This document shows positions 37,738 to 56,537 of a stretch of DNA of 64,000 bases, one piece after another. Position numbers and translations under genes: made by a program. This DNA comes from Escherichia coli. GTDB lineage: Bacteria > Pseudomonadota > Gammaproteobacteria > Enterobacterales > Enterobacteriaceae. The notes below the pieces were generated by a model. It was not told the DNA's origin and made no database searches. It saw only the letters and a list, made by a program, of their open reading frames with translations. Where the stretch lies: NCBI RefSeq assembly GCF_011045215.1, contig NZ_CP049201.1; one strand, given 5' to 3'. Position 1 is the stretch's first letter. The number at the start of each line of letters is the position of its first letter.

Positions 37738-37792
37738 ACATTTCTCCCATAAAAAAACCGCCCCTGAGGCGGTCAGTTGATTTACTTCTTTT

Positions 37793-38338: not shown

Positions 38339-38340
38339 GA

Positions 38341-39714
38341 TTACAAACTCGCTACATTTCTCCAGACGCCATTAATCAGAACCTGCACCGGGCGTGCATT
38401 GGCCCAGTCCACACTTTCACCGCCATCAACACCACTCAGTAAATGACCTGATGGCGCATTTCCCCCGCGTCCAATACCAATGGCGCTTCCCAGACGTACA
38501 TCCTGCACGCCGCCTGTTTTGGTCTGATAGCGGGCATCAAAGTTTCCGTAGTTTGATGGAGTTATCTGCCCATTTACAGCGAATGTGACGCTACCGTCTG
38601 TATTTCTCTGACTGTAGAAATGCCAGCCGGAATCATCACCAAGCTCTGCAACTACAGGTCTGGATGGATTACCCCATAAATTAAACCCTACGTTCTTCGT
38701 GGAGCTGTTGGAGCTGGATAGCGTGAATTTTTTACTATCCCCGGCCTGAACGTTTTTAAAAGCAATAGCAACTCCATTCTGAAAGCGAAATACGCGCTGA
38801 TTATTAGCATAAACATCCAGAATGCCGTCGCCGTTTTGTTTTATACCTGTATCGTTATCACCGAGAGTAATAGAATTACCACCCAATGCGTTATTCGTAC
38901 CAAGCGCCAGCCCACCATCAATTTTTGCACCGTGGCTGACTGATATAGCGCCTGTTCTCAGATTTATAGCAAATGGCCTTAATGGGCCGATATCACCGTT
39001 TTCGCCCCGTCCTTCAGACGTCGGGATAAAATGAAGATATTCTTCCGAACGACGAAAAATCAGGCCAAAAGCATCGTCGAAAATTCGCAGCGCATTCACC
39101 GTGCCAATTTTCAGCTCCCCGGTCATGGTGTCACCACCGCGCTGAACGGCATTTTTCGCTTTATCCACCGTAGGTTTTAATCCGAGGTTATCAACCGCTT
39201 CATCTTTATCTTCCACATCGGCAAGATTCTCGCCGATGCGCAGATAGCGTTTATCTCCGGCCTCCTGCGTGATAATCGCCCTGTGAGGATCCACCTCCAG
39301 CGTCACACTCTGTGTATGTGTAAGCGCAAGAACCAGTGTCAGTATCACCTCCTTGATAACGGAATCCGTCTGTGCCGGTAAATACGTATCCGGATAACGA
39401 CCATACGCAATCAGCGTGCCACGGCGACTCACCATCCCCAGCTCGCGCAGGGTCTTTCCCGGGTATGACTGACAGTCAATGACAATATCCCCGCTGATAA
39501 AACCTTCGTCCACCACGCCGCCTGAAAAGGGCTCCCGACCAAACTCACCACACAACATGACCATCGCCGCCATCTCATCCGGCGTTGAGGGCAGTGTTTT
39601 CCCGCCCCCGTCACCAATCATCACCTGACTGATGGTCACCACCTCACCGGCATGATATGCAGCTTCAATTTCGGCTGCCCCGGCTGTTGTCAAAACTAGT
39701 CCATGCATACCCAC
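38341..39714 (-). CDS. Tail fibre protein (P2 gpH-like)
   Basis: 457-aa ORF; C-terminal half (NNALGGNSITLGDNDTGIKQNGDGILDVYANNQRVFRFQNGVAIAFKN...) closely resembles recalled P2 H. Confidence 0.8.
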   Translation of the reverse strand: MGMHGLVLTTAGAAEIEAAYHAGEVVTISQVMIGDGGGKTLPSTPDEMAAMVMLCGEFGREPFSGGVVDEGFISGDIVIDCQSYPGKTLRELGMVSRRGTLIAYGRYPDTYLPAQTDSVIKEVILTLVLALTHTQSVTLEVDPHRAIITQEAGDKRYLRIGENLADVEDKDEAVDNLGLKPTVDKAKNAVQRGGDTMTGELKIGTVNALRIFDDAFGLIFRRSEEYLHFIPTSEGRGENGDIGPLRPFAINLRTGAISVSHGAKIDGGLALGTNNALGGNSITLGDNDTGIKQNGDGILDVYANNQRVFRFQNGVAIAFKNVQAGDSKKFTLSSSNSSTKNVGFNLWGNPSRPVVAELGDDSGWHFYSQRNTDGSVTFAVNGQITPSNYGNFDARYQTKTGGVQDVRLGSAIGIGRGGNAPSGHLLSGVDGGESVDWANARPVQVLINGVWRNVASL

Positions 39715-39717
39715 AAC

Positions 39718-40299
39718 TCACTCCACCCACTCATCCCGGATACCCCGGGTATCATCAGCACTGATACCACTGACTTTTTCTGTTGCCATCACATAACCGT
39801 AACCAAAAATACGCCCCCTGCTGTTTCCGTAAAGATGAACACTGAACCAGCTGCGCAGATTTTTGGCACGGAGCACCGCATGCTTCAGATCCTGATAGTC
39901 ATTCATCTGTACCGGTAAATCCTTCTGCTCCACATTCAACCGGAAGGTATAGGGTTCACCTGGTGGCGTCTGCTCATACCACTCCACAATCTGTGACCGG
40001 AACGGGCTGTCTGTCAGTGATTCGTTCAGAGCGGCTTTTGTTCCCCGGTGACGATGGATATAAGCGGCACGTTTTATCGCCGCTCTTTTTTCCGCCTCCG
40101 TCCAGTGTTCATTCCAGGCGTCCACCGACATTTCCCAGGCCAGCCATGGCAGCAATTCCGTCGGACATAAATCGGGATTTTTTACATAGCGGATCAGACA
40201 GACCGCGATTTCCGCCAGCATATCACCGGCGGTACTGTCCACCACCCGCTCTGCCCGGCTGGCGCTGACAGGAAGTATGCTTCTGATGATGTCATTCAT
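39718..40299 (-). CDS. Baseplate protein (P2 gpI-like)
   Basis: 193-aa ORF; LLPWLAWEMSVDAWNEHW motif resembles recalled P2 I. Confidence 0.75.
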   Translation of the reverse strand: MNDIIRSILPVSASRAERVVDSTAGDMLAEIAVCLIRYVKNPDLCPTELLPWLAWEMSVDAWNEHWTEAEKRAAIKRAAYIHRHRGTKAALNESLTDSPFRSQIVEWYEQTPPGEPYTFRLNVEQKDLPVQMNDYQDLKHAVLRAKNLRSWFSVHLYGNSRGRIFGYGYVMATEKVSGISADDTRGIRDEWVE

Positions 40300-41206
40300 C
40301 GGTTGCCTCCACCTTGTTCAGTGTGACTGAGCGACACCATGGAGCCTGTCCCATCGCCGGAACAATATCACTGGCCGGCGATTTCAGTGCCACCGTAATC
40401 ACCCCCGTCTGATGCAGGGCTCCGTCCATACCGGAGCAGGACGCCACAGAACCAATCCGGTGAACACTGTCAGTGTATGTCTGCAGCGCCTGACGGGCAT
40501 TTTTCATCACCAGTTCACCATCCAGCCCGTAGGGAATATGAATATCTGCAACCACATCGTAGAGAATAATTTCTGCCGCACGGACACTGACAAAATCCGT
40601 CAGAGGTCGAATTTCATCATCATTGACTGACGCTGCCACCTTATCCAGCAGGGGTTGCGATGCCGTACCGTTTCCGGTTCGCGATAACACATAAAGAAAA
40701 ACACGCCCTTCCTGTGAATGCGTTTCCGGCCCGTAGGCTTTCACATCCAGCACATCAGGATCAGCACTCTGTGCAAAATAATGGTAAGCATTTTTCGCAC
40801 CGGCTGTACTGAGTCGCGCCCACGACAACTGAATACGCTCACGAAAGGCATCATCCCCTTCATACACCGCCGGTGTGGGCGGGATAGTGCTGTCATCTGC
40901 CGGAGTAATCACCAGACGTTGCACCTGAAAATTCGCACCAATCTGATCCAGATCGTTCCTGCGGGCACTGGCAAGCAGTACAGCCCGGACTGCATCATTG
41001 ACCTGCTGGCGCATCAGCGCCACCCGAAAAGCAAGCGCCTCCGCCCATTTATACGCCGGATCTGATTCCACCAGGGCCGAAAACAACGTGTCCAGTTCCT
41101 GATATTTCGCCACTATCTGAGTGACCAGCACAGCGGTGTCCGGCACCTCCACCGCATCCGGTACAGGTATCGCGGACAAATCAATAATGGCCTGAGACGT
41201 TGTCAA
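40292..41206 (-). CDS. Baseplate assembly protein J (P2 gpJ-like)
   Basis: 304-aa ORF; ...ITPADDSTIPPTPAV... identical stretch to recalled P2 J. Confidence 0.8.
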   Translation of the reverse strand: MTTSQAIIDLSAIPVPDAVEVPDTAVLVTQIVAKYQELDTLFSALVESDPAYKWAEALAFRVALMRQQVNDAVRAVLLASARRNDLDQIGANFQVQRLVITPADDSTIPPTPAVYEGDDAFRERIQLSWARLSTAGAKNAYHYFAQSADPDVLDVKAYGPETHSQEGRVFLYVLSRTGNGTASQPLLDKVAASVNDDEIRPLTDFVSVRAAEIILYDVVADIHIPYGLDGELVMKNARQALQTYTDSVHRIGSVASCSGMDGALHQTGVITVALKSPASDIVPAMGQAPWCRSVTLNKVEATDE

Positions 41207-41537
41207 TTCTGATTTCCTCCAGACGAATTGTTTCCTGTGTTTCGTTATTCACGCCCAAAAGCGTCAACATGACATTTCCCTCACCGCCGAAGCTCACCTC
41301 CACACGGCGGATCGTCAGTCTCGGTTCCCAGCGTTCAAGAGCGGTAACCGTCTCACGGACAATCCTCACCCGTGTGAAATCATCCTGCGGGTTATCAAGC
41401 AGACTGAACAACCTGCTGCCGTATTCCCTGAGAAGTACCCGGCTGCCGACTGGTGTTGACAAAATATCGGTGACGGACTGACGCAGATGTTCGTTACCGT
41501 GCAGATATCTGCCGGTGGCGGAATCAATACCAATCAT
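41181..41537 (-). CDS. Baseplate protein W (P2 gpW / gp25-like)
   Basis: ORF track 41181..41627; start taken at MIGIDSATGRYL (ATG 41537); SVTDILSTPVGSRV resembles recalled P2 W. Confidence 0.75.
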   Translation of the reverse strand: MIGIDSATGRYLHGNEHLRQSVTDILSTPVGSRVLLREYGSRLFSLLDNPQDDFTRVRIVRETVTALERWEPRLTIRRVEVSFGGEGNVMLTLLGVNNETQETIRLEEIRIDNVSGHY

Positions 41538-41571
41538 GAAATTTTTCCGAAAAAAAACGCCGGTGCGGCGT

Positions 41572-42195
41572 TCACATTTCCTGGTTAGGTTTACGGGTGG
41601 TTCCCCCGCTGTCGCCAGGGTGATCATGAGTATTATAAATTTCGCGAATTTTACTCATGCTGCCGGTTTTATCGGTGATCTCCTGTGAGGCACCGATATT
41701 GCCCAGAACCTGCGTATCGGCATTAATCTTCGTTTCTCCCTGCACAGTCAGGGTATCCGTGATTTCCACCGGACCGTCCAGCGTTCCCCTGCCGGTGATT
41801 TTATAGCTGCCGCTTTCAGCCAGCGTGATGGACAGGGCATTGGCTTTACGGTCGTAACGGATTTCCGTTCCGGTATCAAACAAAATAACATGCTCGTGTT
41901 CACTGCCCGCCGGTACAGGAATGGCGTCAATATTCGCCCCCGGATACACACGACCGTTACGCAGATCGCCCGCCTCCGATATCACCGTGACCGCATCTCC
42001 TGGTGCCGGGTAATTACTGACCTGCATGTAACGCCCGGACTGCATCTGAATCCAGGGCAACGGCGGCGAAAGCACATCTCCGATATCCACCCGAACCATC
42101 ACCGGGTTACCCGGGATCACCTCTTCCACCACGCCGCGACGGATCATGTCCGCCACCCTGCGGCGTAACTCTGCCACTTCATCCGCCAGACTCAT
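41572..42195 (-). CDS. Baseplate spike protein V (P2 gpV-like)
   Basis: ORF track 41572..42354; start taken at MSLADEVAELRRRV (ATG 42195); C-terminus HDHPGDSGGTT as in P2 V. Confidence 0.8.
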   Translation of the reverse strand: MSLADEVAELRRRVADMIRRGVVEEVIPGNPVMVRVDIGDVLSPPLPWIQMQSGRYMQVSNYPAPGDAVTVISEAGDLRNGRVYPGANIDAIPVPAGSEHEHVILFDTGTEIRYDRKANALSITLAESGSYKITGRGTLDGPVEITDTLTVQGETKINADTQVLGNIGASQEITDKTGSMSKIREIYNTHDHPGDSGGTTRKPNQEM

Positions 42196-42339
42196 CGCCG
42201 GTGCCCTCCGCTTTCCAGATAAGACGATAATCCTGCACATGCTTTTTACCGGTTTCCGGTACTTTACCCAGCCAGACTTCCTGTAACGGCACACCTGCCG
42301 GAGCCGCAAACGGATCTTCGCCGACCGGAATGTCCTGTT
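42179..42339 (-). pseudogene. 3' fragment of a tail-completion gene (P2 gpS-like position), separated from its 5' part by the inserted element
   Basis: Open frame ...FSFEQDIPVGEDPFAAPAGVPLQEVWLGKVPETGKKHVQDYRLIWKAEGTGDESGG-stop with no upstream start (in-frame stop at 42398-42400); ATGA overlap with gene V. Confidence 0.55.
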
Positions 42340-42348
42340 CAAAAGAGA
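42340..42348. repeat. Left copy of 9-bp direct repeat CAAAAGAGA (putative att core)
   Basis: Identical 9-mer at 53493-53501; both copies sit in the same reading frame of the split gene. Confidence 0.5.
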
Positions 42349-42760
42349 AAGCAAACAAACAAGATAATAAGTTGAATTTAAAGGAATAAAAAAGGCATCA
42401 TTTTTGCTTTTGGTACAAATTCTAGTCCGTATAAACGCGGAAAAATCCGCTAAATTAAGATAAAAAAGATGCTTAGATAGTTACTATGTTTAGCTTCATG
42501 GCTACGGGGAGTAAGTTTGCTCTTTGCTTAATCTCGGTTATGGAAATCCCCATATCGGCATCATGCCCACCAGCGTGACGCATTTTTTTTAATTTCGCGG
42601 GTATAAAAATTTGACGAGGCGGGCGGTCCCATAAGCAATGGGGTGTAGGGATTCCGATCCCCCTGGGGGGGGTATTAAACACCCACCCTATTTAAATACC
42701 GTCTTTTTTGTCACTGTGTGTCACTGGTTGTCACTCTCCGTCACGGTATGCCACCATAAG

Positions 42761-43075
42761 TTAACGTCGTAACCGCTCCGGCTTCTTCCAGTGGTAAGTA
42801 ATTTTTTCTTTCTCCTGGTACATCTGCACGCGGCGACGGTATGACAACATCTCCAGAACTCTGGTGCGTATATTGCGCATATCCACGCCGTTAAGCTCAA
42901 TACCGTCACGGCGCATCACCTCAGCCACCACACGCGCGTAATTTTCGGCTATCACGCTGTCCGGCTGCGTGGCCTCCTGTTTGCCTGCTGGTGGTCTGAT
43001 TCCGGCAGCACGGCGAATCATTTTGAGCATTTCGGCTTCGGTCATTGTCATGGCCTCCGTGGTGATGGAAAACAA
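42761..43075 (-). CDS. Hypothetical protein downstream of element terS
   Basis: 104-aa ORF, no recognised motif; start uncertain (Met at 43075, 43051 or 43045). Confidence 0.4.
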   Translation of the reverse strand: MFSITTEAMTMTEAEMLKMIRRAAGIRPPAGKQEATQPDSVIAENYARVVAEVMRRDGIELNGVDMRNIRTRVLEMLSYRRRVQMYQEKEKITYHWKKPERLRR

Positions 43076-43310
43076 TGCCGTAATTGTGGCGGGTCCTTCC
43101 TGGAAAATGAAACACCGGGGGTGGCCATACGCGCAATTCTTAACTGTTTATGAAAATTTTTCGGGAAAAGTCAGATCCGTTCTTCTTCTCTGTAACTCAT
43201 TGTTTAATGGTAAAATCATCAAAAAAAGAAAGGATCTGGCAGTGGTCATTCTGGGCCCAAAATGACGTTATCAGATCCTTTCTCAGTTTTGTTCAATAAT
43301 TGCGCGGTTG

Positions 43311-43895
43311 TCACTCAGCTCTCTGTTGCCGTAACTTCTCCGGCACGTTTCCGGTTGTTTCCATCAGATAATCTTCCAGAATGCGGGGCAGGTTATCGGC
43401 AGTTTTAGCGCACGCATTACAGGCGCGTGCTGTTTCCCTCCTCAGGCCATCGATCATTGCCGGAGTCATCGCGGGAAACTGCCTTTGCATCGTAAGGGGC
43501 AAGCTATTCATGATGGTTGAAATCTGTTGCGCCAGTTTAGACAGTGCATACATACAAAAGCCGGTATCTATAACCTCTCCTGTCTCCCTGGCGTTCTTCA
43601 GTTCCTGCCCGTCAGCCTGTGCTTTAGTGAGACGGTATCGTTCGTACTCTGTTGTGCCTGGCTGTAAATCTGATTCACCAACGGCACGTAAATCATCAAG
43701 CTCACTGCGGAGTTTTTCTTTTTCGATCTCCTTCTCCCTCTGTACATACCATTCGATCACCTGTGAAGAGTCGAAAGTCACCTCCATACCTTTTCCGCCA
43801 CCAGATACATGGGGGAGCCCTTGCATCTGCCAACGTTCAATTGTGCGCGGATCAACACCGAAAATCTCTGCCAGTCTCTTTTTGTTAACATTCAT
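43311..43895 (-). CDS. Terminase small subunit, lambda Nu1-like (element copy)
   Basis: N-terminus MNVNKKRLAEIFGVDPRTIERWQMQGLPHVSGGGKGMEV resembles recalled lambda Nu1 winged HTH; C-terminal half similar to the prophage TerS at 62051..62560. Confidence 0.8.
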   Translation of the reverse strand: MNVNKKRLAEIFGVDPRTIERWQMQGLPHVSGGGKGMEVTFDSSQVIEWYVQREKEIEKEKLRSELDDLRAVGESDLQPGTTEYERYRLTKAQADGQELKNARETGEVIDTGFCMYALSKLAQQISTIMNSLPLTMQRQFPAMTPAMIDGLRRETARACNACAKTADNLPRILEDYLMETTGNVPEKLRQQRAE

Positions 43896-44039
43896 TTATC
43901 AAATCCTCATCAAAAACCACCTCCGACATGAAACGCCTGAAAAACGGGATTTTCCGGCGTTATGGTGTCGTATGTTTATTATAGTTAATTTAAATAAAAA
44001 CATAATGTTACATGCAAGAAGTACCGACATGCTTTTTCC

Positions 44040-44115
44040 CTGAAAAATTTTCATAAATAGTGAAAATCTGCGCGTCTGCCGCCCCGCGGTGTTTCTGATT
44101 CTGGAAAGGACCCGT
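44040..44115. other. Lambda-like cos site of the element
   Basis: GAAAAATTTTCATAAATAG ... GCGCGTCTGCCGCCCCGCGG ... GGAAAGGACCCG; reverse complement resembles the lambda cos junction (CGCTATTTATGAAAATTTTCC, GGGCGGCGACCT, GGGTCCTTTCC); about 185 bp upstream of terS. Confidence 0.6.
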
Positions 44116-44194
44116 GAAAATTGGGGCGATCACCACCGTTCCGGATACAAAAAAAATCGCGAGACCTTGCCAGCCTCGCGAACGTTCATTTCAG

Positions 44195-44620
44195 TTACTT
44201 AACAGACAGCAACAGCTTTTCATCTTCGGTCAGTCCGGCGTTGCCATCACCGGCTGCTGGCCCAACACATTTCGGGCTGTGCTTTTCCATGTACGCTTCA
44301 AACAGAAAAGCCGTTTTCTTTTCCTGCATCATTGCCTGGGCATCCACGGCAGCCAGTAACGTTTGTGCATAGGTTACTGTCATTACTTCAGAACCACACT
44401 CAATCAGCTTACTGGTGAACTCAGGGTATTTTGATGCCAGCGGTAACGCCTTGATACCCTCTATGCGCTGTTTATCACTCTCAGCCTTTGCAGTAAGCAC
44501 CGTTCGGGCTTCTGTCAGTGATGCGCCATTATTTGCGAGATTTTCCGCAAGCGTCGGGTATTTCTGCGCCTCAGGCAGTGCCATGATCAATGCTCTGGTT
44601 GAATTTGCTTTCTCAGTCAT
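44195..44620 (-). CDS. Hypothetical head-module protein (possible scaffold)
   Basis: 141-aa ORF between decoration-like gene and cos; no recognised motif. Confidence 0.45.
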   Translation of the reverse strand: MTEKANSTRALIMALPEAQKYPTLAENLANNGASLTEARTVLTAKAESDKQRIEGIKALPLASKYPEFTSKLIECGSEVMTVTYAQTLLAAVDAQAMMQEKKTAFLFEAYMEKHSPKCVGPAAGDGNAGLTEDEKLLLSVK

Positions 44621-44634
44621 AAATCACCACAAAA

Positions 44635-44964
44635 TTATTGCCCTAAAGGCTGCACGGAAATACCGGAACCAACAAAAGACGACACTTTTTTCTCGAACGT
44701 GTCCGCTGTATCAGGCCAGTTAATTTCATCGATATTAAAAACCCCGCACTTATAAACCTGTGCGCGGTTTTTTGTGGCCGTGTTAATGTCCGATATGGTC
44801 AGATACACCGCCTTACCGGGTGTACCGTCCCACTCAACCATCAGGCCCGCGCCGTTCTGCATCAGCGGAGTTCTCGCTTTAATTTCTCCGGCACTGGCAA
44901 AACAGGCCAGCGTGCTGACCAGTTCCTGCGTGCCGGAAAGGAATTGCGTGTAAGGTGTTGGCAT
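44635..44964 (-). CDS. Head decoration protein homologue (lambda gpD-like, element copy)
   Basis: RTPLM..VEWDGTPGKAV...YKCGVF..INWPD...FVGSGISV parallels the gpD pattern TPLM..VAWDG...YKSGTF...WP..AF.GTAIS. Confidence 0.65.
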   Translation of the reverse strand: MPTPYTQFLSGTQELVSTLACFASAGEIKARTPLMQNGAGLMVEWDGTPGKAVYLTISDINTATKNRAQVYKCGVFNIDEINWPDTADTFEKKVSSFVGSGISVQPLGQ

Positions 44965-44974
44965 ACGATCCCCT

Positions 44975-46030
44975 TTATTTCACTTCGACGGTAACAAAGC
45001 GACCAATATCCACGGGTACTGGCTGCGGGGCGCTGTGCGTCTGCACGTATTCAATCGCCGGATCGCCCGGTACGATATAATTTTTCGGGTAGTACATCCC
45101 CTCAGAAAATCCCTCGCGTGCCGCGTCCTGATCCATGATGGCACCATAAGCAACAAGGCCTTTATTTTCGGTATTGCCGAAAACCATCATGTTTTGTTTC
45201 AGGAAATATTGCTGCTGCCCGTTTTCGTCGTCATAACGACCGGAATAAACCACGATCGCCACATCACCGAGATACCCCTTGAAGCTGACAACGCCGCCCA
45301 AATCTTTTAGCGCAAGTTCAAGTGACGAGTTTGAACCGCGACGCGTGTCCATTAGTTCGCGGAATCGACGGAACGAGCGCAAAATACGCCAGGCTTCGCC
45401 ACCCATGACGATAATATTTACCGTACCTTCGGAAAAATCAGCGTAAGCCTCAATGTCGCTTATCGGATCAAACGTTTCGGCATCCTGTTTTGACCATTCT
45501 TTCCCGCCAGCCTGCGTAATATGATTGGTTTCGGGTAATCCCCAGTCAATTTCATAACGCTCAATGCCTTCGCCCTCAATAACGTTACGGCCTGTTGTGA
45601 TGGCATTGACCGCCAGCCATTCAACACGCGCTTTGATGGCAGCAAGCTGTTTTTTCTGGCTGTCGTGAACCATTTTTACGCGGCGTAGTGCCGGGGAAGA
45701 CTGACCATTGCCGATCTGTTCTCCAGGCATGCGCATGATTGTTTTGGTGGGATCAATAACGTGTTTGGGCTTCATATAACCCGGCGTGAACGTGTTCGTT
45801 GTGAAACCTTTGTCACGCATAACCTGGCTGCCTGACATTGGAGAACAAAACGGACTCATGACCACGTTTTCAATATCCAGCGTATCAAGTGCAATATCTC
45901 TGGTGCTGAAAGTAGCGACGTTCGGAAAGAACAACGTAGTAAAGAGTGGATTAAATTTAAATTCCGGCACATCTTCGCGCCCGATATTTTTCAGTAGCGT
46001 TGGTGTGCTTACCAGTTGCGGCGCTGTCAT
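44975..46030 (-). CDS. Major capsid protein homologue (lambda gpE-like, element copy)
   Basis: 351-aa ORF; TPGYMKPKH, NHITQAGGKEWSKQDAETFDP, KELMDTRRGSNSSLELALKDLGGVVSFKGY align with the prophage gpE at 55439..56467. Confidence 0.8.
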   Translation of the reverse strand: MTAPQLVSTPTLLKNIGREDVPEFKFNPLFTTLFFPNVATFSTRDIALDTLDIENVVMSPFCSPMSGSQVMRDKGFTTNTFTPGYMKPKHVIDPTKTIMRMPGEQIGNGQSSPALRRVKMVHDSQKKQLAAIKARVEWLAVNAITTGRNVIEGEGIERYEIDWGLPETNHITQAGGKEWSKQDAETFDPISDIEAYADFSEGTVNIIVMGGEAWRILRSFRRFRELMDTRRGSNSSLELALKDLGGVVSFKGYLGDVAIVVYSGRYDDENGQQQYFLKQNMMVFGNTENKGLVAYGAIMDQDAAREGFSEGMYYPKNYIVPGDPAIEYVQTHSAPQPVPVDIGRFVTVEVK

Positions 46031-46266
46031 TACTCACCCCCATGAGGCTGATTCATACCAAGCGCAGCGCGTAAATGGCTGCGTACCATCCAGCCGACTG
46101 ACGGCTTCACCAGGCACAACGGATCAAGGCCGATTTTTTTTCCTGCCTCTGCGTTCTCCTCAAAGCGCGCATTAAGTGCGGCGATAATATCGGGGCTGAT
46201 GTACACGGATACACCGCCCGGCTTCTGTGTTCCCATAAATGAGATTCCTCTTTGACTAAAAAACAA
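46030..46266 (-). CDS. Hypothetical protein upstream of capsid homologue
   Basis: 78-aa ORF, start uncertain; no recognised motif. Confidence 0.35.
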   Translation of the reverse strand: MFFSQRGISFMGTQKPGGVSVYISPDIIAALNARFEENAEAGKKIGLDPLCLVKPSVGWMVRSHLRAALGMNQPHGGE

Positions 46267-46457
46267 ACATAACGAAAAGTCATGTCATGATTTTAATTAT
46301 CGTTGCACTTTTTGCAATATAATTGACTATTGTTGCGAATAATGAAATCATTATGTCGTGGTTTTAATCCTTGTACCACAGAGTTGTTTAGCATTAATCA
46401 CGTTAGCGGCGTGAAATCCCCCGGAACCTCATCCCGGGGGATTTTTTTGCGCACAAA

Positions 46458-46482
46458 AAAGCCGGGAAAAATCCCGGCTTCT
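46458..46482 (-). terminator. Terminator after element ssb
   Basis: AGCCGGGA..TCCCGGCT hairpin followed by TTTTTTGTG on the minus strand, just after ssb stop. Confidence 0.5.
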
Positions 46483-46494
46483 GTCACTCGTTGC

Positions 46495-46917
46495 TTAAAA
46501 CGGTATTTCATCCCCGTACGGATCATCATTTCCCGCCTGTTGTTTTGCTCTGCTCAGTGCATCAGTAGCCTGCCCCTGTTGGCCTTTTTTGCCGCCCGGT
46601 CGCGCCGTTCTGGCACTGATTACACTGTCTGCGATAACCTGCCAGCTCTGCCGCGTTTCGCCGTTCTGGCCTGTCCACTGGCTTACCTGCATGTTACCCG
46701 CCACGCTCACCAGTTCGCCTTTGCGGTGTTTTGCCAGTGCGTCGGCCTGTCTGCCAAACGCCAGGACGGATAACCACATCGTCGCCGTTCCGTCATCTGC
46801 CTGGCTGCACGGCAGGGGAACCGCCATACTCGCCATCGCCATTTGTGTTCCCTTGCTGGTGGTCTTTAACTGCGGGTCAGCCACCAGCCGCCCGTAAGCT
46901 GCTATCTGTGCTGTCAT
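46495..46917 (-). CDS. Single-stranded DNA-binding protein (SSB-like) with acidic C-terminal tip
   Basis: 140-aa ORF; C-terminus ...NDDPYGDEIPF resembles the SSB tail ...DFDDDIPF. Confidence 0.7.
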   Translation of the reverse strand: MTAQIAAYGRLVADPQLKTTSKGTQMAMASMAVPLPCSQADDGTATMWLSVLAFGRQADALAKHRKGELVSVAGNMQVSQWTGQNGETRQSWQVIADSVISARTARPGGKKGQQGQATDALSRAKQQAGNDDPYGDEIPF

Positions 46918-47165
46918 GCTGTCTGCTCTCCGGTTTTAACGTTGATGGTTGTCACCTGTTCCGCTTCGGCAATCTCCCGCTCTGTCAGCGTGGCAAAGTT
47001 TGCCGCCGCTGTGGTCATGAATGCGCTTATCAGTTCGGGATGTGCTTTTGCGTATCCTTCTCCGGCATGGCGGTCTATTGTTCTGATTGCCACCTTTAAG
47101 GCGTGCTCTGTCATGTCTAACGCTTTATATTTTGGCGCTGTCTTATCTCTGGTTTTTTTGGTCAT
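46914..47165 (-). CDS. Hypothetical protein
   Basis: 83-aa ORF, ATGA overlap with ssb start. Confidence 0.45.
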   Translation of the reverse strand: MTKKTRDKTAPKYKALDMTEHALKVAIRTIDRHAGEGYAKAHPELISAFMTTAAANFATLTEREIAEAEQVTTINVKTGEQTA

Positions 47166-47370
47166 TTCTCACTATTCCCCACTTTTTCGCCTCACTTTTT
47201 AAGCTCCCAACATGATTTCCAACCTTGTTTTTTTGTGATTCTAATATGTTGTTTTTCAATGTGTTTTTTATTCCTCACTTTTGAGCCTATATACAGGTTG
47301 AAAAGTGAGGGGCGCGGTTGCTTTTTGTTCAGTTTCTGCTATCCCCTCACTTTTGTGCCTCACTTTTTAC
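47165..47370. repeat. Iteron array with AT-rich core (candidate replication origin of the element)
   Basis: CTCACTTTT at 47191, 47274, 47346, 47361 and inverted AAAAGTGAGG at 47301, flanking an AT-rich stretch (47225-47275), directly downstream of the helicase gene. Confidence 0.55.
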
Positions 47371-48782
47371 AGTGGGCGCACATCATCACCGTCAATAGTG
47401 ATAACGCCGTCTCTTTCCAGCTTGTACAGCCAGCGCCGAAAGTTTTTCATCTCATACCCCAGCTTTTTCATATCATCACGCAATAACGGGATAGTGCATT
47501 TATCGCCGCGCTGTGTGCGTGAACGGATACAGCCCCATAGCGCGGCGTGATTCTCCGTCTTGTTTCCGGCCTCCTCAATGCGCTCCAGTTCAACAGGTGG
47601 GCGCGGCTTATCCACTACCACCAGCGACGTGATTAACTCCTTGTCAGCGTCGATAAAAAGCTCCACCACGCGTAAATCGTATGCGGCCTCTTTCAGTTCC
47701 TCTGCGTCCTTCATTTTGGTGCAGGAGATAACCAGGGCTTCACTGTCTGCACCTTCCCGGCGAATACGGTATTCAGCGTCCAGAGATGCACGAAATGCAC
47801 TGGAACCACGCGCCCCCTTTGTTTCATCCTTGCCGGAATGGTGAACCACCAGTACCGTGGCCCCTGTGCGTCGTTTCAGTTCGTCACATCCACGGATAAA
47901 CGCCCCCATATCCCGCGCGTCATTTTCATCATTACCGCCAAAACACCGCGCCAGCGTATCCAGAATAATCATGCGTACCGGTTTACCCGTTTCCCTTTCA
48001 ACCTGGCGGGAAGCGATGACCATTTCATCAATATCAAACTGTGCTGCCGGAAAAATCGGGCGGTTTACCAGGTACAGATTTTTCACCCGTTCATCATTAA
48101 CGATTTCCCATGCTTTGATACGACGAGGGACACCAATGCCACCTTCACCGACGACATACATCACCGAACCATGCGCCACCCTGCGGCCTCCCCAGTGGCG
48201 ACCCGTGGCAACATGACACGCCCAGGAACACGCGAGGAATGATTTATAGGAACCGCTCGCGCCGTATGTGCTGCACAACGAATTAGCCGGAATCACGCCC
48301 TTAACGACATAATCAAGCTGTGTGTCGTACCCTGCAGATCCAATACTCATTGGTAGCGTGGTTTTTCGCTGGTCGTTTTTTTCTTCCTCCGGTATCTCTC
48401 CGGACCGTCTTTTCTGGCGCTCTCGTTCCAGATATTCGCGCCACCCCTCCCGCTTCTGGCTGTGCATTCCCTCAGGGTAATAATTCGCATCCCGTACACC
48501 TGCCGCTGCCAGCTTTTGCCCGATGGCATTAATATTTGACGGCTTGATGTGGCCTGCCTTGTACAGCCGGACACAATAGCGACCATCGTCGATAATTTTC
48601 AGGTCAGCCAGTTCGTCAAGATGGCTGTCTCCAAGCCATACAGGCGGAACATTGTCGCCAGCAAGTCGCCCGTCCTGCTCCTGCCATTGTTTCGCGTGCG
48701 CCCAGGCATCACTACCCGCAAAAATAATGACTTCGGTCATTTTGTCGTGCGGCTGTTTTTTTAAGTTCGGTGCCAGTTTCAT
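47367..48782 (-). CDS. Replication protein, RepA/DnaB-like P-loop helicase
   Basis: 471-aa ORF with Walker A GASGSYKS and RecA-like core; C-terminal winged-helix-like region. Confidence 0.7.
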   Translation of the reverse strand: MKLAPNLKKQPHDKMTEVIIFAGSDAWAHAKQWQEQDGRLAGDNVPPVWLGDSHLDELADLKIIDDGRYCVRLYKAGHIKPSNINAIGQKLAAAGVRDANYYPEGMHSQKREGWREYLERERQKRRSGEIPEEEKNDQRKTTLPMSIGSAGYDTQLDYVVKGVIPANSLCSTYGASGSYKSFLACSWACHVATGRHWGGRRVAHGSVMYVVGEGGIGVPRRIKAWEIVNDERVKNLYLVNRPIFPAAQFDIDEMVIASRQVERETGKPVRMIILDTLARCFGGNDENDARDMGAFIRGCDELKRRTGATVLVVHHSGKDETKGARGSSAFRASLDAEYRIRREGADSEALVISCTKMKDAEELKEAAYDLRVVELFIDADKELITSLVVVDKPRPPVELERIEEAGNKTENHAALWGCIRSRTQRGDKCTIPLLRDDMKKLGYEMKNFRRWLYKLERDGVITIDGDDVRPL

Positions 48783-49078
48783 TTTTTACCCCTGAATGCG
48801 TTAATCATGTTTTTCATTTTCTGAATGTTCGCCCGTGCCTTTGCGTTGCTGGTGGGCTGTTTGCATGGCGTGGCCTGTATCAGTGAAAAATCACGCCGGA
48901 ACTGATAAACAGGCATCACGCAGTCATAGCCGTACCCATCACGGCGGTAAGTAACGCACCGTCCCGCCACGCTTTTAATCGTTACCGTGCCGCCGTAGTT
49001 ATCCCGGAAAATATCGCCGGGGCGGATTTCAGGCCGAGCGGGGCCGCTGGCAGTAAAGCCAGAAATTTTCTGTTTCAT
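48779..49078 (-). CDS. Hypothetical protein
   Basis: 99-aa ORF, ATGA overlap with helicase start. Confidence 0.4.
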   Translation of the reverse strand: MKQKISGFTASGPARPEIRPGDIFRDNYGGTVTIKSVAGRCVTYRRDGYGYDCVMPVYQFRRDFSLIQATPCKQPTSNAKARANIQKMKNMINAFRGKK

Positions 49079-49286
49079 GGTTTTTATTCCTCTGCGCGGG
49101 TCTTGTTGTGTATTTCCATAACCGCGTTTAATTCATCAATAACCGGGGTTAACAGAGTGCTGAAAGCAGAAAATAAATCCCCCCCCCTGTTCGGCATGAA
49201 CTTCGGTTAATTTAATTAATACCGCTTTCATTTCCAGTGCCCGGTTTAATGCATTCTCAGAATGAATAAGAACATCGAAAGGGATT

Positions 49287-49520
49287 TTATCCATGGCTTA
49301 CATCCTCCGGGAATTTTCTTCTGTAACGCGCCTCTGCAACATATTCCGCATAGTCCGACGCAATATTGAGAATCTCCACACCCTCTGACCTGTAGCCACT
49401 GGTACTGATAAGAAAAAATGCGGCTTTCATCATGTCGGCAACGCATAACAACGCATCGCCTGTATGTTCCGGTGCGCCATCAAATTCCTGTTTCAGGGCA
49501 TTAAAACGATCATCACGCAT
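49287..49520 (-). CDS. Hypothetical protein (may be the 3' part of one gene frameshifted at a C9 tract)
   Basis: 77-aa ORF; begins inside poly-C/G tract 49523-49531. Confidence 0.3.
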   Translation of the reverse strand: MRDDRFNALKQEFDGAPEHTGDALLCVADMMKAAFFLISTSGYRSEGVEILNIASDYAEYVAEARYRRKFPEDVSHG

Positions 49521-49753
49521 AACCCCCCCCCATTTTCACAATCAGTAATCAGGATGGCTTTAGCCTCATTCAGTGCCATATCAGCACTAAATTGCATAAC
49601 AGCCAGTGAGTGAGGAACGAAATCCCCGGCATATTCTGTTTCGCTGGTGGCGTGCTTATGTGCCCTGTCCGCGATAACAGAAATATCAATCAGCGCGTGC
49701 ATCAGCGTTTTGATGGCTTCGGCGGCTGCGTCCTGACGGGTGTTATTGCACAT
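49493..49753 (-). CDS. Hypothetical protein (may be the 5' part of one gene frameshifted at a C9 tract)
   Basis: 86-aa ORF ending just after poly-C/G tract. Confidence 0.3.
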   Translation of the reverse strand: MCNNTRQDAAAEAIKTLMHALIDISVIADRAHKHATSETEYAGDFVPHSLAVMQFSADMALNEAKAILITDCENGGGLCVMIVLMP

Positions 49754-49949
49754 GGCGCACCTCCTGACGAATACGGGCGGCGAATACCATCACGCAGCCA
49801 TCAGGAGATTGCTGACGCGCTTCCTGTTCGTTGGTGGCCTCAATGGTAATCACGCGCGGTTGTGCCGTGCTCAGGGCGATAAAACGCCAGATGTATTTAT
49901 TCAGGTTGTGCGAGTCCCGCCCTTGCGGGTGTGTGGTATGATTTAACAT
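49743..49949 (-). CDS. Hypothetical small protein, divergent from the RHH gene
   Basis: Start taken at MLNHTTHPQ (ATG 49949, RBS GAGGTA); long upstream extension in ORF track rejected. Confidence 0.4.
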   Translation of the reverse strand: MLNHTTHPQGRDSHNLNKYIWRFIALSTAQPRVITIEATNEQEARQQSPDGCVMVFAARIRQEVRHVQ

Positions 49950-50043
49950 AGCTACCTCGATAATCTTGCTATCGTTGGTGGTTAGACGCCCTGCATGTGT
50001 ACCACCACTGCGGGGCGTTGCGTTTTTTGATGTGCACGTGTTA

Positions 50044-50088
50044 AGGTGTACACCTAACGAACCAAAACATAACGCCATAGGTGTACAC
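50044..50088. promoter_or_regulatory. Two palindromic operator-like sites GTGTACAC in a divergent promoter region
   Basis: AGGTGTACAC at 50044-50053 and 50079-50088, second abutting the RHH start codon. Confidence 0.5.
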
Positions 50089-50283
50089 ATGTCAACAGTT
50101 ATTAAGCGCGATAAAAAACAAAAAGGCACAGGAAAGGCCCCACCATTCCATATGCGTATAGTCCCTGAATTGAAGGAGCAGTTTGATAACGAAGCCAGTA
50201 ACGATGGAGTAAGTCTTGCCAACTGGCTTAAAGAGTTAGGGCGCAAAGAACTGCTACGGCGCGGAATTGAACCAAAGGGATAA
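50089..50283 (+). CDS. Ribbon-helix-helix (Arc/CopG-like) DNA-binding protein
   Basis: ORF track 49966..50283; start taken at MSTVIKRDKKQKG (ATG 50089); APPFHMRIVPELKEQFDNEASNDGVSLANWLKELGRK fits the Arc-type RHH pattern. Confidence 0.6.
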   Translation: MSTVIKRDKKQKGTGKAPPFHMRIVPELKEQFDNEASNDGVSLANWLKELGRKELLRRGIEPKG

Positions 50284-50340
50284 CTATCACTAATGTCGCA
50301 ACCAGAGGAGTTGCGACTCCGAAGATTACATAGGAAATTA

Positions 50341-50823
50341 ATGATTATGGGATTCGTCATTTTCATTGCGATCGTAATTTTATCCATTTACGTTCTTACC
50401 AAATTATTTATTTCAGAAAATTCACACGACAAAATTAGAGCCGAGGCATCCAGAAGAATTGCACAAGAAGAGGCCGAACGGGCTAAGTTGTATGAAGAGA
50501 GAAAGGAATCATCTGATAATCCTGTTAATAAACAAAAACGAATAACAACACACGAAGATCATTTTTATATGGATATTCATGGTGGTCACAAATATATATG
50601 TGTTGATGCTAAGTTAGTTTTTGAATATGCAAATTTAAAACACAACTATTTTCTTCACGCCTCTCACTATTTCCCTGAGTTAGAGTATGTTTATGGAAAA
50701 AACGAACATGGGAAAATAGTTAGAGTAGATTTGTACGATAAAAAAATTCAAGCTATTAACCCCGATACTGGCGAAAAAATACCTGGTGTGAGACGTTATC
50801 TACGACAGCACAAGATAAAATAG
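50341..50823 (+). CDS. AT-rich membrane-anchored protein of unknown function
   Basis: ORF track 50293..50823; start taken at MIMGFVIFIAIVILSIYVL (ATG 50341, RBS AGGAAA); single N-terminal TM helix; markedly lower GC than neighbours. Confidence 0.5.
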   Translation: MIMGFVIFIAIVILSIYVLTKLFISENSHDKIRAEASRRIAQEEAERAKLYEERKESSDNPVNKQKRITTHEDHFYMDIHGGHKYICVDAKLVFEYANLKHNYFLHASHYFPELEYVYGKNEHGKIVRVDLYDKKIQAINPDTGEKIPGVRRYLRQHKIK

Positions 50824-51238
50824 CCCACCGGAATTTTTTTCCGGTTACGCTTTGCCCACCAGCCGCAAATGTGGCATTGTTGGCTATGCTCATGCGTTGG
50901 GGATAACGCGCAATTAGTGTTGAAGGGCCACCGTAGCGGGTGGCCTTTGTTTTGCCTGTTATCCGGCAATTGTGGCGCTTCGCCACACGGTTGATATAAT
51001 CCTCCTGCACAGATTCATTTTTTGCGCAGCAGGTTAATTGTTCGCAAGGGCGCTCCGGCAACTGGGCGCTTTTTGTTTTTACCCACCAGCACAATAAAAA
51101 TCTTCATTTTCCATTTTTGCAAAATTTCATGCTTTCCGGACGACTGGCCATATGTCATTTTTTAGCAGAAGATTTTGCCTTGCTGGTGGGTAGCTTCCCG
51201 GTTAACACGATGTACCGTATAATCAGCACCGCACGCGG

Positions 51239-51820
51239 TTACTGAATACGCTCACCAAAGTAAAACTCAGGCTGATATTCACGTATCAGCCTTTTTTCTT
51301 CTTCCTCCAGCTCACGCTTTTTGCGCTTACATGCCTGTAGTTCCCTCCCCTTCTCGCTGGCACTTATCTGGTATTGCTCTTTGCGACGGGAAAAATCCTG
51401 TAATGCGCCCCACGGGATACCATAAGCCCCCGTTTTTCTGATACCCGGTATCACATTTCTGAATACCCAGTTACTGAAACGATGGGCGAACGTGCCAGGA
51501 GTAGCAGCTTTTCGACTTCTGGCAATCAGCTTGTAAAAACCAGATTCAGAAACGACGCTATGATTTGGATTTCCGCGAATACCGTAAGTTAAAGTTACGG
51601 TATTACTTTCATCATCATCCAGAGCTTGCAACGCCATGCGTGAATTAGTCAGTTCCAGCGCAGCGCAGACATCCTTTGCAACAAACCACGGATCGCCGTT
51701 CAGATACACCACGCGAACGTTCACACTATCAAAGCGCAGAACGACCAGATCACGAATATCACAGAATTTTTTCACTGGACGTGCGTCACCCTTGCCAGTC
51801 ACGGCAATATTTTTATTCAT
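51239..51820 (-). CDS. Bro-N domain protein (antirepressor-like)
   Basis: DIRDLVVLRFDSVNVRVVYLNGDPWFVAKDVCAALEL...GFYKLI..S....A..F..WV fits Bro-N. Confidence 0.7.
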   Translation of the reverse strand: MNKNIAVTGKGDARPVKKFCDIRDLVVLRFDSVNVRVVYLNGDPWFVAKDVCAALELTNSRMALQALDDDESNTVTLTYGIRGNPNHSVVSESGFYKLIARSRKAATPGTFAHRFSNWVFRNVIPGIRKTGAYGIPWGALQDFSRRKEQYQISASEKGRELQACKRKKRELEEEEKRLIREYQPEFYFGERIQ

Positions 51821-51870
51821 CGCTTTTTACCTCACATACAAAAAACCCCGCATTGCGCGGGGTATATCAA

Positions 51871-52080
51871 TCATTGACGATATTCATTAGCTTGTTTTCG
51901 TTGTCTTTCCAGCCACGATGCAACATCATCACGATGCCATGCGTTGCGTCGCCCAATCTTAAAGGGGCGTGGAAATTTATTTTTTTCATCATTCATGAAA
52001 GCGTAAAATGCACTCATTGCACCGTAGCGAAGCTCTGCCATCACGTCTTTGGTAAATAGAATATTGCCGTTAGTGCTCAT
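51871..52080 (-). CDS. AlpA-family regulator / excisionase-like protein
   Basis: 69-aa ORF immediately downstream of integrase, HTH-like core. Confidence 0.65.
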   Translation of the reverse strand: MSTNGNILFTKDVMAELRYGAMSAFYAFMNDEKNKFPRPFKIGRRNAWHRDDVASWLERQRKQANEYRQ

Positions 52081-52086
52081 ATTGCC

Positions 52087-53319
52087 TCACATATTCACTA
52101 CTTTTAGCCCCTGATGACCACCAGAACGACGGATAATTCCCTTTCTGGCATCATCAACAAAATCACCAATCCATTGCATCATGATCTTACGTTGCTCAAA
52201 ATATTTTGAGCGATTATAAATATCACGAATAGCATCGCCGCTTTTATGGGCTAATGCTGCCTCAATAACATCTGGGTTAAACCCTTCTTCGTTGAGTAAC
52301 GTACTCCACATAGCCCGGAATCCGTGGGCAGTTGCAATACCATAAAATTGTCCATCTTTGAAACACTTATGACGCAACACGCTTGATATAGCTTTCCCCG
52401 GATTCTTTGGAGAAAAAAATATATAGCTACCACATTTTATTTTATTCATTTCATTTAAAATATCCACGGCTTGCCGTGAAAGCGGAACTACGTGTTCACG
52501 TCCACACTTCATTCTTTCAGGGGGAATTGTCCAGATACAATTTTCTAAATCAATTTCCTCCCATTTTGCCTCCCTTGCTTCACATGGTCGTACCATAGTG
52601 AAAATCTGGAACAAAAGAGAGCATCTTATAGAGATATTACTTGTAGTATCCCACCAGTTCAAAAATTCTGATAACAGTTCAACTGGTAATGCCTTTAATG
52701 GGGTATGTTTTTTTGTTGCAAATGCATTTCTTATTGTTGATAGCGGGTTATTTTTAATTACTCCAGAGTTAACACAGTAATTCATTATTTCATTAATTTT
52801 TGAAATAATTTTATCCAATACAGAATTACGATCAGAAAATTGATTAAGCAATGGTATGACCACAGGCGCGGTCATATCATGTATGTACACATTTCCAAAT
52901 ACAGGGATTATATGTCTGTTCAATAACTCTTCTATTGTCTGTAAAGTCGACAGTCGCAAATCACCTTTTTTCTTAAAATTAAACCATTCAATTGCAATAG
53001 CACCAAACGTCTGTAAGTGCTTTCTTTTAGCCTCGAGTCGTTTTTCTGCCCGGTATGATAACGGATCTATATCCCGTGCCAACAATCTGCGCAGATTATC
53101 GCGTTCTTCTCTGGCTTCAACCAGCGTGAAATCGGGGTATCGCCCTATAGTGTATGTTTGCCGCTTCTTCGTAAAAGGTTGTACATAACGAAAACGCCAC
53201 GATTTACTACCGGCTTTTGACACATAAAGCAAAAGCCCAAACCCATCATATAGAGCGTAATCTTTCTCTCGTGGCCTGGCGCTTTTTACCTCTGATGCAG
53301 TAAGAGGCTTCACCGACAT
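52087..53319 (-). CDS. Tyrosine recombinase, P4-type integrase
   Basis: ORF track 52087..53418; start taken at MSVKPLTASEVKSARPREKDYALYDGFGLLLYVSKAGSKSWRFRY (ATG 53319); C-terminal catalytic region with HGFR and Y. Confidence 0.85.
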   Translation of the reverse strand: MSVKPLTASEVKSARPREKDYALYDGFGLLLYVSKAGSKSWRFRYVQPFTKKRQTYTIGRYPDFTLVEAREERDNLRRLLARDIDPLSYRAEKRLEAKRKHLQTFGAIAIEWFNFKKKGDLRLSTLQTIEELLNRHIIPVFGNVYIHDMTAPVVIPLLNQFSDRNSVLDKIISKINEIMNYCVNSGVIKNNPLSTIRNAFATKKHTPLKALPVELLSEFLNWWDTTSNISIRCSLLFQIFTMVRPCEAREAKWEEIDLENCIWTIPPERMKCGREHVVPLSRQAVDILNEMNKIKCGSYIFFSPKNPGKAISSVLRHKCFKDGQFYGIATAHGFRAMWSTLLNEEGFNPDVIEAALAHKSGDAIRDIYNRSKYFEQRKIMMQWIGDFVDDARKGIIRRSGGHQGLKVVNM

Positions 53320-53492
53320 ACAAGCACTCCAATACAAATTTTTTCTAGTCCATGCGCTGGTTCCTTTTGCCAGAATACTGGCGATAAAAAAGCGAAAAAC
53401 AAGGAACAATGCACACAATGAAAAAACCGCAACTTATTGAATAAGAAGAAAAACAAAAAGAAACGGTAACGAAAGATAATGATTGCATAGTC

Positions 53493-53501
53493 CAAAAGAG
53501 A
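53493..53501. repeat. Right copy of 9-bp direct repeat CAAAAGAGA (putative att core)
   Basis: Identical to 42340-42348; about 170 bp from the integrase start. Confidence 0.5.
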
Positions 53502-53898
53502 CACGGAAAACGATGTAGTCGTCCAGCAGTCGGTCGAAGGTATCCACCTCAGCATCAATAAAAACCGCCGGATCAACGTTATCCAGCCCGAACGTGGCTC
53601 CATCAATCCAGTCAGATAAATCCATTGCCAGACAGCGGGCAAATATCTGCGGTTTTGGCACGTTTTCCGTCTTTCCGGCCCGATCAGTCACCACAAACAG
53701 ATCGCATTTCAGCGTGACCCGTGTCTGCCCGTCGGCAAACTGAGCCTTGTCCCAGCCGGGTACATCCACAAACACGGCAGGCGTCACCAGTTGCGTCACT
53801 TTTTCCGGGTACTCATCGGCATCTTCCACCCAGGGAATTTGTTTCAGACTGTCAATCACTGCCTGATGCCAGGTTCCCATCATCAATGGTTCCATCAT
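53501..53898 (-). pseudogene. 5' fragment of the split tail-completion gene
   Basis: ORF 53434..53898 reads a coherent protein to ...DDYIVFRVSF then a hydrophobic nonsense tail (GLCNHYLSLPFLFVFLLIQ) encoded by element sequence; frame at the junction matches the fragment at 42179..42339. Confidence 0.55.
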
Positions 53899-54617
53899 TC
53901 CATCCCCTTAAATACCCGGAATTTCAGTTCATGCTCAAAATTTTTCAGGATCAGTGCTTCCGCATCAGGGAAAACAAAATCCTCTATACGGTTCAGCATG
54001 GCTTCATAAATATCAATTTCCGCTTCGCGCACCCTTCGTCGTCCGGATGCCTGCCGGACCAGTACCGTCTTACGTCGTGAAATGCGTCCGCGCCGGTTTT
54101 CAGACTCAAACTCATTAACAAAAGCCTCGTCACCTGACCAGGTGGTGACCGGTATTGCCTCCCCGGCGGGCTTAAAACGTATCTCCGGCGCTTTCCTGCG
54201 ACGGGAAGCCGGTGCAAAACGCCCCCGTTCATCACGCAGCTGATGGCGTTCACCGCGTCGCCCCCCACTGATGCGTCCGCGCAGATCACGCACTTTGATG
54301 GCGTTCAGGCCGAACCACACCTTTACCTCATCAAACTCATCGCCATTTCGACGAATGATAAAAGCATTCAGGACACGTTTTTTGATCATTTTCTGGCTGC
54401 GTGGCGCAACCTGTTTTTTAAACTCTGCCATGGCCTTCATCCGCAGTGCGGACGCGGCTCTTTTCAGCGCCACGCCCCAGGCTTTACGGATCTGGCTTTT
54501 TGAACCACCCAGTTTAGCGATAATTTTCAGCACATCATCCTCGTCAATATCGACGACGAGGTTTCGTGCCAGCCGTCGCTGCCGGACAGTGCTTCGTTCA
54601 TGCTCTCTGACTGTCAT
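53895..54617 (-). CDS. Putative head-tail joining / virion morphogenesis protein
   Basis: ORF track 53895..54677; start taken at MTVREHERSTVRQ (ATG 54617); between FII-like and tail-completion genes; family not recognised. Confidence 0.45.
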   Translation of the reverse strand: MTVREHERSTVRQRRLARNLVVDIDEDDVLKIIAKLGGSKSQIRKAWGVALKRAASALRMKAMAEFKKQVAPRSQKMIKKRVLNAFIIRRNGDEFDEVKVWFGLNAIKVRDLRGRISGGRRGERHQLRDERGRFAPASRRRKAPEIRFKPAGEAIPVTTWSGDEAFVNEFESENRRGRISRRKTVLVRQASGRRRVREAEIDIYEAMLNRIEDFVFPDAEALILKNFEHELKFRVFKGME

Positions 54618-55388: not shown

Positions 55389-55438
55389 CACATTTCTCCC
55401 GTGCGATAAAGAAAAAGGCGGGAATATCCCGCCTGACC

Positions 55439-56467: not shown

Positions 56468-56537
56468 AATTGACTTTCCTTTAAAAACACAAACGAACCG
56501 CATCACGACCCGTTTTTTTCAGTTAATCACTTCACCA

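Follow-up and report, generated by a model that had tools for sequence, protein, structure and literature searches.

The gene at 46495-46917 on the minus strand of the window (the whole 64-kb stretch of Escherichia coli DNA that was analysed) encodes a protein whose last ten residues are DDPYGDEIPF, and this raises the question of whether a satellite carries its own SSB, a protein that binds single-stranded DNA, with a partner-docking tail and, if it does, which proteins that tail would recruit. The initial annotation had likened this ending to the DDDIPF tail of host SSB, had assigned the gene to a satellite that might compete for host partners, and had held that this reading would fall if structure prediction gave no support for an OB fold. 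The answer depends on what the surrounding element is, on whether the protein is an SSB at all and on how the tip behaves in its relatives, and these are taken in turn below.

The embedded satellite

The first 20 kb of the window are E. coli chromosome from the acnA-topA region (99.6% identity), and near the trp/ompW region lies a prophage whose flanks occupy 30411-42354 and 53434-62115. The right side of the prophage consists of lambda-like head genes (terminase, portal, S49 protease, decoration, capsid E and FI) and the left side of P2-like contractile-tail and baseplate genes. An island of approximately 11.15 kb (42340-53501, minus strand) is set into this prophage and has a 9-bp att core, CAAAAGAGA, at either end (42340-42348 and 53493-53501). 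The borders emerged when the sequence was compared with E. coli C5, in which the prophage is uninterrupted and which shows that the insertion breaks a 183-aa late gene, in the same orientation, between head-completion genes and baseplate V; no fewer than 72 E. coli records have the site in its uninterrupted form. When the two island ends were searched for att direct repeats by exact words (11-mers), nothing was returned. A tRNA scan of the window was negative; whereas a related island in strain ETEC1732 sits at tRNA-Pro, the present one has no tRNA at its site.

Bro-N, AlpA-like and integrase genes lie upstream of the replication block, at higher coordinates on the minus strand. The tyrosine integrase (52087-53319, minus) has Arm-DNA-bind_3, Phage_int_M and Phage_integrase domains, and the AlpA-like small regulator (51871-52080, minus), whose counterparts in homologous islands carry the annotation helix-turn-helix regulator, matches Phage_AlpA at 20.3 bits, just below the cut-off of 21. 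Downstream of ssb is a late module (43311-46030, minus) defined by Pfam and PHROG matches, which comprises the major capsid protein E (44975-46030), head decoration D (44635-44964), a 141-aa gene (44195-44620) and a Nu1-like small terminase (43311-43895; Pfam 2.2e-68), all on the minus strand. When the island was compared with phage records by megablast, the Nu1-like gene alone was matched, at approximately 73% identity to gene 1 of phage 21; judged by its sequence, a small terminase of the Nu1 type suggests cos-type packaging redirection. A small protease-tail-like ORF is also present in the satellite, and no portal, large terminase, tail or lysis gene was found between the att cores. In the variable zone that runs from Bro-N to the replication genes, two ORFs of 105 and 176 aa without a Pfam match (49966-50823, plus strand) are oriented opposite to all other satellite genes and could be accessory or defence cargo.

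This gene content and the size of 11.15 kb are those of a Gram-negative PICI, with the AlpA match marginally below its cut-off, and the minus strand carries all the main genes of the satellite as well as the head and tail genes on its flanks, as in the layout of helper-embedded PICIs. The element is a helper-embedded PICI, an arrangement that has already been published (PMC10111431), and the surrounding prophage is its probable helper. The carrier was therefore rightly called a satellite, as gene content, att cores and empty-site comparison indicate. Two other classes were considered and rejected: a cf-PICI, given the absence of portal and large terminase among the ORFs scanned, and a P4-like element, given that no alpha, sid, psu or delta family was found among the same ORFs. 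An Rfam gathering scan of 42000-54000 reported no RNA family, including C4/isrK, which is reported for some PICIs. In strain SA53-3 the same prophage-plus-satellite composite also bears Stx2a and subtilase AB5 toxin genes, which would fall past the right end of the window.

The replication module and its ssb gene

Within the satellite, ssb is the last gene of a co-oriented module in the order DUF4222, RepA helicase, iteron array, 83-aa gene and ssb. The DUF4222 gene (48779-49078, minus) is the first recognisable gene of this replication operon, and it is followed by a RepA-family helicase or replication initiator (47367-48782, minus) that matches AAA_25 (Pfam 6.7e-44) and phrog_2850, has weaker matches to primase/helicase PHROGs and is annotated as 'helicase RepA family protein'. 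The iteron array (47177-47367) contains six copies of AAAAGTGAGG, five exact and one inverted, with an A+T-rich stretch in their midst. The 64-kb window has eight matches to this word, of which six fall within this 191-bp intergenic region, and the array, positioned between the helicase gene and the 83-aa/ssb pair, is the putative replication origin of the satellite. No polymerase family was matched among the satellite ORFs scanned, and no complete primase is recognisable in the satellite.

The ssb ORF is intact, from an ATG start to a TAA stop, and its product of 140 aa reads MTAQIAAYGRLVADPQ...AGNDDPYGDEIPF; the coordinates (stop codon included) and the tail given in the initial annotation agree exactly with the ORF read-out. 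A Shine-Dalgarno sequence, GGAGAG (46926-46931, minus), can be read 8 nt 5' of the ATG. From the ORF coordinates and the sequence, the start codon of ssb and the stop codon of the upstream 83-aa gene overlap as ATGA. This upstream gene (46914-47165, minus; phrog_1231) is translationally coupled to ssb, and the same gene pair occurs in E. coli islands; it has no Pfam or NCBIfam match and its product could be an SSB or helicase accessory factor.

The far side of ssb is marked by RNA structure. A G+C-rich hairpin of 9 bp lies 15 nt past the ssb stop and is followed by a U run (46452-46480, minus; arms 46459-46467 and 46472-46480, inverted repeat I12), and the minus-strand RNA of 46405-46500 folds at -45.9 kcal/mol (z = -5.3 against shuffles). 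The hairpin and its U run are probably an intrinsic terminator that closes the replication operon. A second hairpin, a perfect 11 bp identified by RNA fold and as inverted repeat I6 (46414-46444), has its T run on the plus strand and is possibly a terminator for the opposite direction. These strong hairpins stand back to back between ssb and the capsid module (46414-46480), and the pair looks like a bidirectional terminator that divides the replication module from the late module. A consensus promoter and terminator scan of 45900-49300 gave sites no more numerous than in shuffles, and neither of the two post-ssb hairpins was listed in it.

An SSB of bacterial type with a conserved tip

The protein matches the SSB family in Pfam (PF00436) over residues 5-99 with 62 bits (cut-off 26; 6.3e-17), TIGR00621 with 62.9 bits (cut-off 53.95) and the SSB family of PHROG (phrog_44) at 1.3e-40, and a phmmer search retrieved 27 PDB SSB chains at E <= 0.01. 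The first two scores exceed curated cut-offs and confirm the family to which the gene had been assigned. AlphaFold2, run as a monomer prediction on an alignment of 45 sequences (A1, 32-96% identity to the query), gave pLDDT values of 92-98 over residues 1-100 as means of 10-residue blocks. The predicted elements are strands at 3-11, 16-19, 25-36 and 44-54, a helix at 55-62 and strands at 69-82 and 88-100, an order that fits the five-strand barrel of an OB fold with its helix between strands 3 and 4. When this model was compared with the PDB by Foldseek, the best 50 matches were all SSBs (probability 1.00, TM (target) 0.63-0.80). Residues 1-100 (46618-46917, minus) are thus predicted to be an ssDNA-binding OB-fold domain, and the one result named in advance as fatal to the SSB assignment, a failure to predict this fold, did not arise. 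No second SSB-like ORF was found in the 64-kb window, and ssb is the only ORF fragment of at least 60 aa in the window that has an acidic ...[ILV]PF end.

The protein is not, however, a copy of a familiar enterobacterial SSB. It scores 29 bits against PRK09010, the enterobacterial chromosomal SSB (cut-off 260), and 18.6 bits against PRK13732, the F-like plasmid SSB (cut-off 265); both scores are below the subfamily thresholds and, on these grounds, an orthologue of chromosomal SSB and an F-type plasmid SSB were each ruled out. Comparison was made with an E. coli SSB sequence that matches PDB 1eqq at 178 of 178 residues. The two proteins (E. coli SSB as in 1eqq/4mz9) have in common an OB fold, a disordered linker and an acidic tip that ends in I-P-F, and they differ in length (140 aa for the satellite SSB and 178 aa for E. 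coli SSB) and in pI (8.85 and 5.44 respectively). The OB domains are 27% identical. Of the four aromatics that stack on ssDNA, three are retained, with W54, F60 and W88 of E. coli SSB corresponding to W48, F54 and W81 of the satellite SSB; in the 45-sequence alignment F54 never varies and the conservation of W48 is 90% or higher. The position of W40 is occupied by Gln and that of H55, the residue altered in ssb-1, by Leu. From the sequence, Leu at this position may mean that the oligomer interface of the satellite SSB differs from that of E. coli SSB. The L23 loop is also five residues shorter than that of E. coli SSB in the pairwise alignment. Given the identity of 27%, the Gln in place of W40 and the Leu in place of H55, the oligomeric state of the satellite SSB is uncertain.

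The OB fold is followed by a short basic linker (residues 101-130; 46528-46617, minus), delimited by pLDDT, charge and conservation. It has 30 aa, a net charge of +5 and a G+Q+P fraction of 0.37, whereas the linker of E. coli SSB has 55 residues, a net charge of +1 and a G+Q+P fraction of 0.65; the satellite linker is therefore about half as long, and basic. AlphaFold2 assigned pLDDT values of 55-64 to the last 40 residues, which include the linker, and in the family the linker is the least conserved region with the exception of R106 and P107. These two residues belong to a family-specific SARTxRP motif at the boundary between OB fold and linker (residues 101-107; 46596-46617), in which their conservation stays at 90% or more in relatives as distant as 32-50% identity, and the motif is not found in E. 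coli SSB. A short basic linker may alter both cooperativity and the accessibility of the tip.

The last ten residues (131-140; 46498-46527, minus) form the acidic tip, as sequence, conservation and charge indicate. Read from the C-terminus, the satellite tip is F, P, I, E, D, G, Y and that of E. coli SSB is F, P, I, D, D, D, F, so that the two agree at F-1, P-2, I-3, an acidic residue at -4 (E for D), D-5 and an aromatic at -7 (Y for F), and the net charge over the last 10 residues is -4 in both. Work on SSB-partner docking found the terminal Pro-Phe to be most critical, with the Phe and the carboxylate occupying the pocket of chi, and the loss of one of three acidic tip residues to cost little (PMC3561973); the satellite tip holds P139-F140 and two of the three acidic residues. 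The protein thus ends in the manner of an SSB-Ct, with a disordered linker capped by an acidic [DE]-x-[IL]-P-F tip.

The tip is also maintained in relatives of the protein. An ending of the form [NDGES]IPF is present in 108 of 120 close homologues, and variants of [FY]-D-D-x-[IL]-P-F end most full-length representatives at 32-60% identity. In the 45-sequence alignment F140 does not vary, and the conservation of D136 is 90% or more. In a set of 117 representatives from clusters at 50% identity, the most frequent residue at a position has a mean frequency of 0.52 in the tip (134-140), 0.51 in the OB fold and 0.20 in the linker. Conservation of the tip thus equals that of the OB fold, and the linker between them drifts, a pattern that points to purifying selection on a docking motif rather than to chance. 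The likeness to DDDIPF that was claimed for the tail is therefore supported twice, by the aligned residues shared with E. coli SSB and by the conservation of the tip in homologues. There is one qualification: position -4 is N or G, and not acidic, in most close homologues, so that their tip is less acidic than DDDIPF and its affinity for host partners may be lower. Taken together, the satellite gene encodes a genuine bacterial-type SSB, in which a short disordered linker joins the OB fold to an SSB-Ct-like tip.

The clade to which this SSB belongs is common in E. coli. DNA resembling ssb (80-95% identical) is present in 1625 of 5426 complete E. coli genomes, about 30%; every match listed, including those at approximately 94% nucleotide identity, carries the annotation 'single-stranded DNA-binding protein'. 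Protein clusters 96% identical to the query have more than 1000 member sequences. A protein search of 50,697 deposited phage genomes found no relative of the SSB above 32% identity, and relatives occur in just 26 of 72,556 plasmid records, one of which is 4.9 Mb. In the islands inspected, from strains ETEC1732 and SA53-3, ssb is at the same place. A 50%-identical relative, P0135, is encoded in another integrase-AlpA island that has no recognisable RepA helicase, and a distant relative, P0194, is on a 1.9-kb contig. As it is common in E. coli genomes and scarce in phage and plasmid records, the SSB clade seems to reside mainly in integrated islands.

Proposed partners of the tip and relation to known systems

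Given an SSB with a selected docking motif, it is considered likely that the satellite SSB coats ssDNA at the satellite origin or fork and that its tip recruits host partners, so that the host replisome takes over. After induction and excision, the RepA-type helicase or initiator would open the adjacent iteron origin, and the satellite SSB, made from the same operon beside that origin, would cover the exposed ssDNA. The tip on the SSB-coated satellite DNA would then recruit those host proteins that read the motif, namely DnaG, chi of the clamp loader and perhaps proteins of restart or repair, after which the host replisome would take over the satellite DNA. That the tip recruits host proteins is proposed since the satellite is without a DNA polymerase or a recognisable complete primase. 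Counted against this proposal are the abundance of SSB that the host itself provides, the low identity of the OB domain and its Leu at the position of H55, the short basic linker, the less acidic position -4 of most close homologues and the ability of phage SSB tips to serve proteins of the element instead. Both DnaG and chi are known to bind the C-terminus of SSB (PMC3632105). What we infer of the satellite protein in this scheme covers its ssDNA binding, its oligomeric state, the partners of its tip and the timing of its expression.

The tip could instead recruit mainly proteins of the element itself or of its helper, the host-like ending being an ancestral docking motif reused within a mobile element. 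The RecA-fold RepA helicase, the coupled 83-aa protein and recombination proteins of the helper, of the Red-beta or Orf kind, would be the candidates, and this possibility is compatible with recruitment of host partners. It has precedents: the SSB tail of HK620, NDYPPF, is needed to load the cognate RecA-core protein Sak4 on SSB-coated ssDNA (PMC5928155), the SSB tail of T7 binds T7 polymerase and helicase/primase (preprint 10.64898/2026.02.22.705581) and the C-terminal domain of lambda Red-beta interacts with E. coli SSB, according to the title of PMC6393309. The setting of the gene is also consistent with it, given that ssb is operonic with a helicase of the RecA-like AAA_25 fold and translationally coupled to a conserved 83-aa gene. 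Nevertheless, it is thought unlikely for two reasons: first, the tip has the exact I-P-F of host SSB and not a divergent ending such as the PPF of HK620. Second, a [FY]-D-D-x-[IL]-P-F pattern of this general kind recurs in relatives at 32-60% identity, and P0135 lies in an island with no recognisable RepA helicase. The I-P-F end, the shared pattern and the context of P0135 indicate that a universal partner of the host type fits better than a lineage-specific one.

Two further proposals place the satellite SSB in conflict with the helper or the host. In the first, it would be a satellite-specific hijacking factor, which couples the origin and the RepA helicase to DnaG and Pol III and outcompetes the helper or host for SSB-interacting proteins; this is regarded as quite improbable. 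A protein acting in this manner could also influence SSB-sensing defence (Retron-Eco8, DARNA, Hna, AbpAB) in the cells that carry it. In the second, the competition raised in the initial annotation, it would displace host SSB on ssDNA or titrate SSB-interacting proteins and so favour replication of the satellite and depress that of helper or host. The precedent is G36P of SPP1, which has a host-like tip, supports phage forks and inhibits the host replisome despite saturating SsbA (PMC3561973), and this proposal is also favoured by the linker and core of the satellite clade, which are unlike those of host SSB, and by a distribution in which no close relative is found in the 50,697 phage records yet 1625 of the 5426 E. 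coli genomes are matched. However, nothing in the sequence separates such interference from plain support of replication, the authors of the SPP1 study credit the inhibition by G36P to features outside the tip, and the satellite needs its helper to carry late gene expression through to the end; interference is accordingly held to be very improbable. It is scarcely credible that ssb is a passenger or decaying gene without a role in the satellite and its tail a relic, as truncated or tip-less examples among the database homologues might imply, given an intact ORF of the modal length of 140 aa, a Shine-Dalgarno sequence, translational coupling and a probable terminator, a tip as conserved as the fold down to approximately 35% identity, and a gene retained in the ETEC1732 and SA53-3 islands and matched in 1625 E. 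coli genomes.

Recruitment of host partners to satellite DNA, the preferred reading, can be set against what is known of other mobile elements. Mobile-element SSBs that retain the SSB-Ct have long been known. The SSBs of F-like plasmids and of phage P1 keep this motif and can replace host ssb; those of the F-like plasmids (PRK13732) and P1 are close paralogues of host SSB, which the satellite SSB is not. The SSB of HK620 (PMC5928155) resembles the satellite SSB in being an enterobacterial mobile-element SSB with a DDDIPF-like acidic tail that is required for partner loading, and differs in that its tail, NDYPPF, serves a recombinase and in its larger size of 21.3 kDa. G36P of SPP1 (PMC3561973) has the same host-like Pro-Phe tip with two of three acidic residues and acts with an element-encoded helicase and origin-binding system and the host polymerase. 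It differs in coming from a Gram-positive system and in being 48% identical to the SSB of its own host. Furthermore, inhibition of the host replisome has been demonstrated in vitro for G36P, whereas for the satellite SSB it would be a conjecture.

The closest published setting is that of the PICIs themselves. In PMC10111431, Gram-negative PICIs are given a replication category to which SSB, like primase and DUF5906, is assigned, adjoining the mapped origin. The kind of element, the position of the module next to replicase and origin and the host species are all shared with the present satellite, as is, for the helper-embedded PICIs, insertion into a late gene of a prophage with a short block of att identity. 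That study lists 14 helper-embedded PICI sites; the present insertion is between head-completion genes and baseplate V, in a prophage with lambda-like heads and a contractile tail. It classifies the SSB only and is silent on the tail, and in the literature searched neither experimental work on a PICI SSB nor comment on its tail was found. The satellite ssb is an ordinary, routinely annotated gene, and the type of satellite, its embedding in a helper and the presence of an SSB in its module have all been published.

In summary, the analysis bears out that E. coli PICI satellites have an SSB of their own whose tip is of the partner-docking kind, and adds little beyond correct annotation of the gene. 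This fits elements that bring an initiator or helicase and an origin while borrowing the polymerase of the host. Should the tip or the unusual linker confer on the satellite an advantage against helper or host, in the way that G36P of SPP1 has one over B. subtilis replication in vitro, the SSB would represent a replication-level layer in the conflict between satellite and helper.
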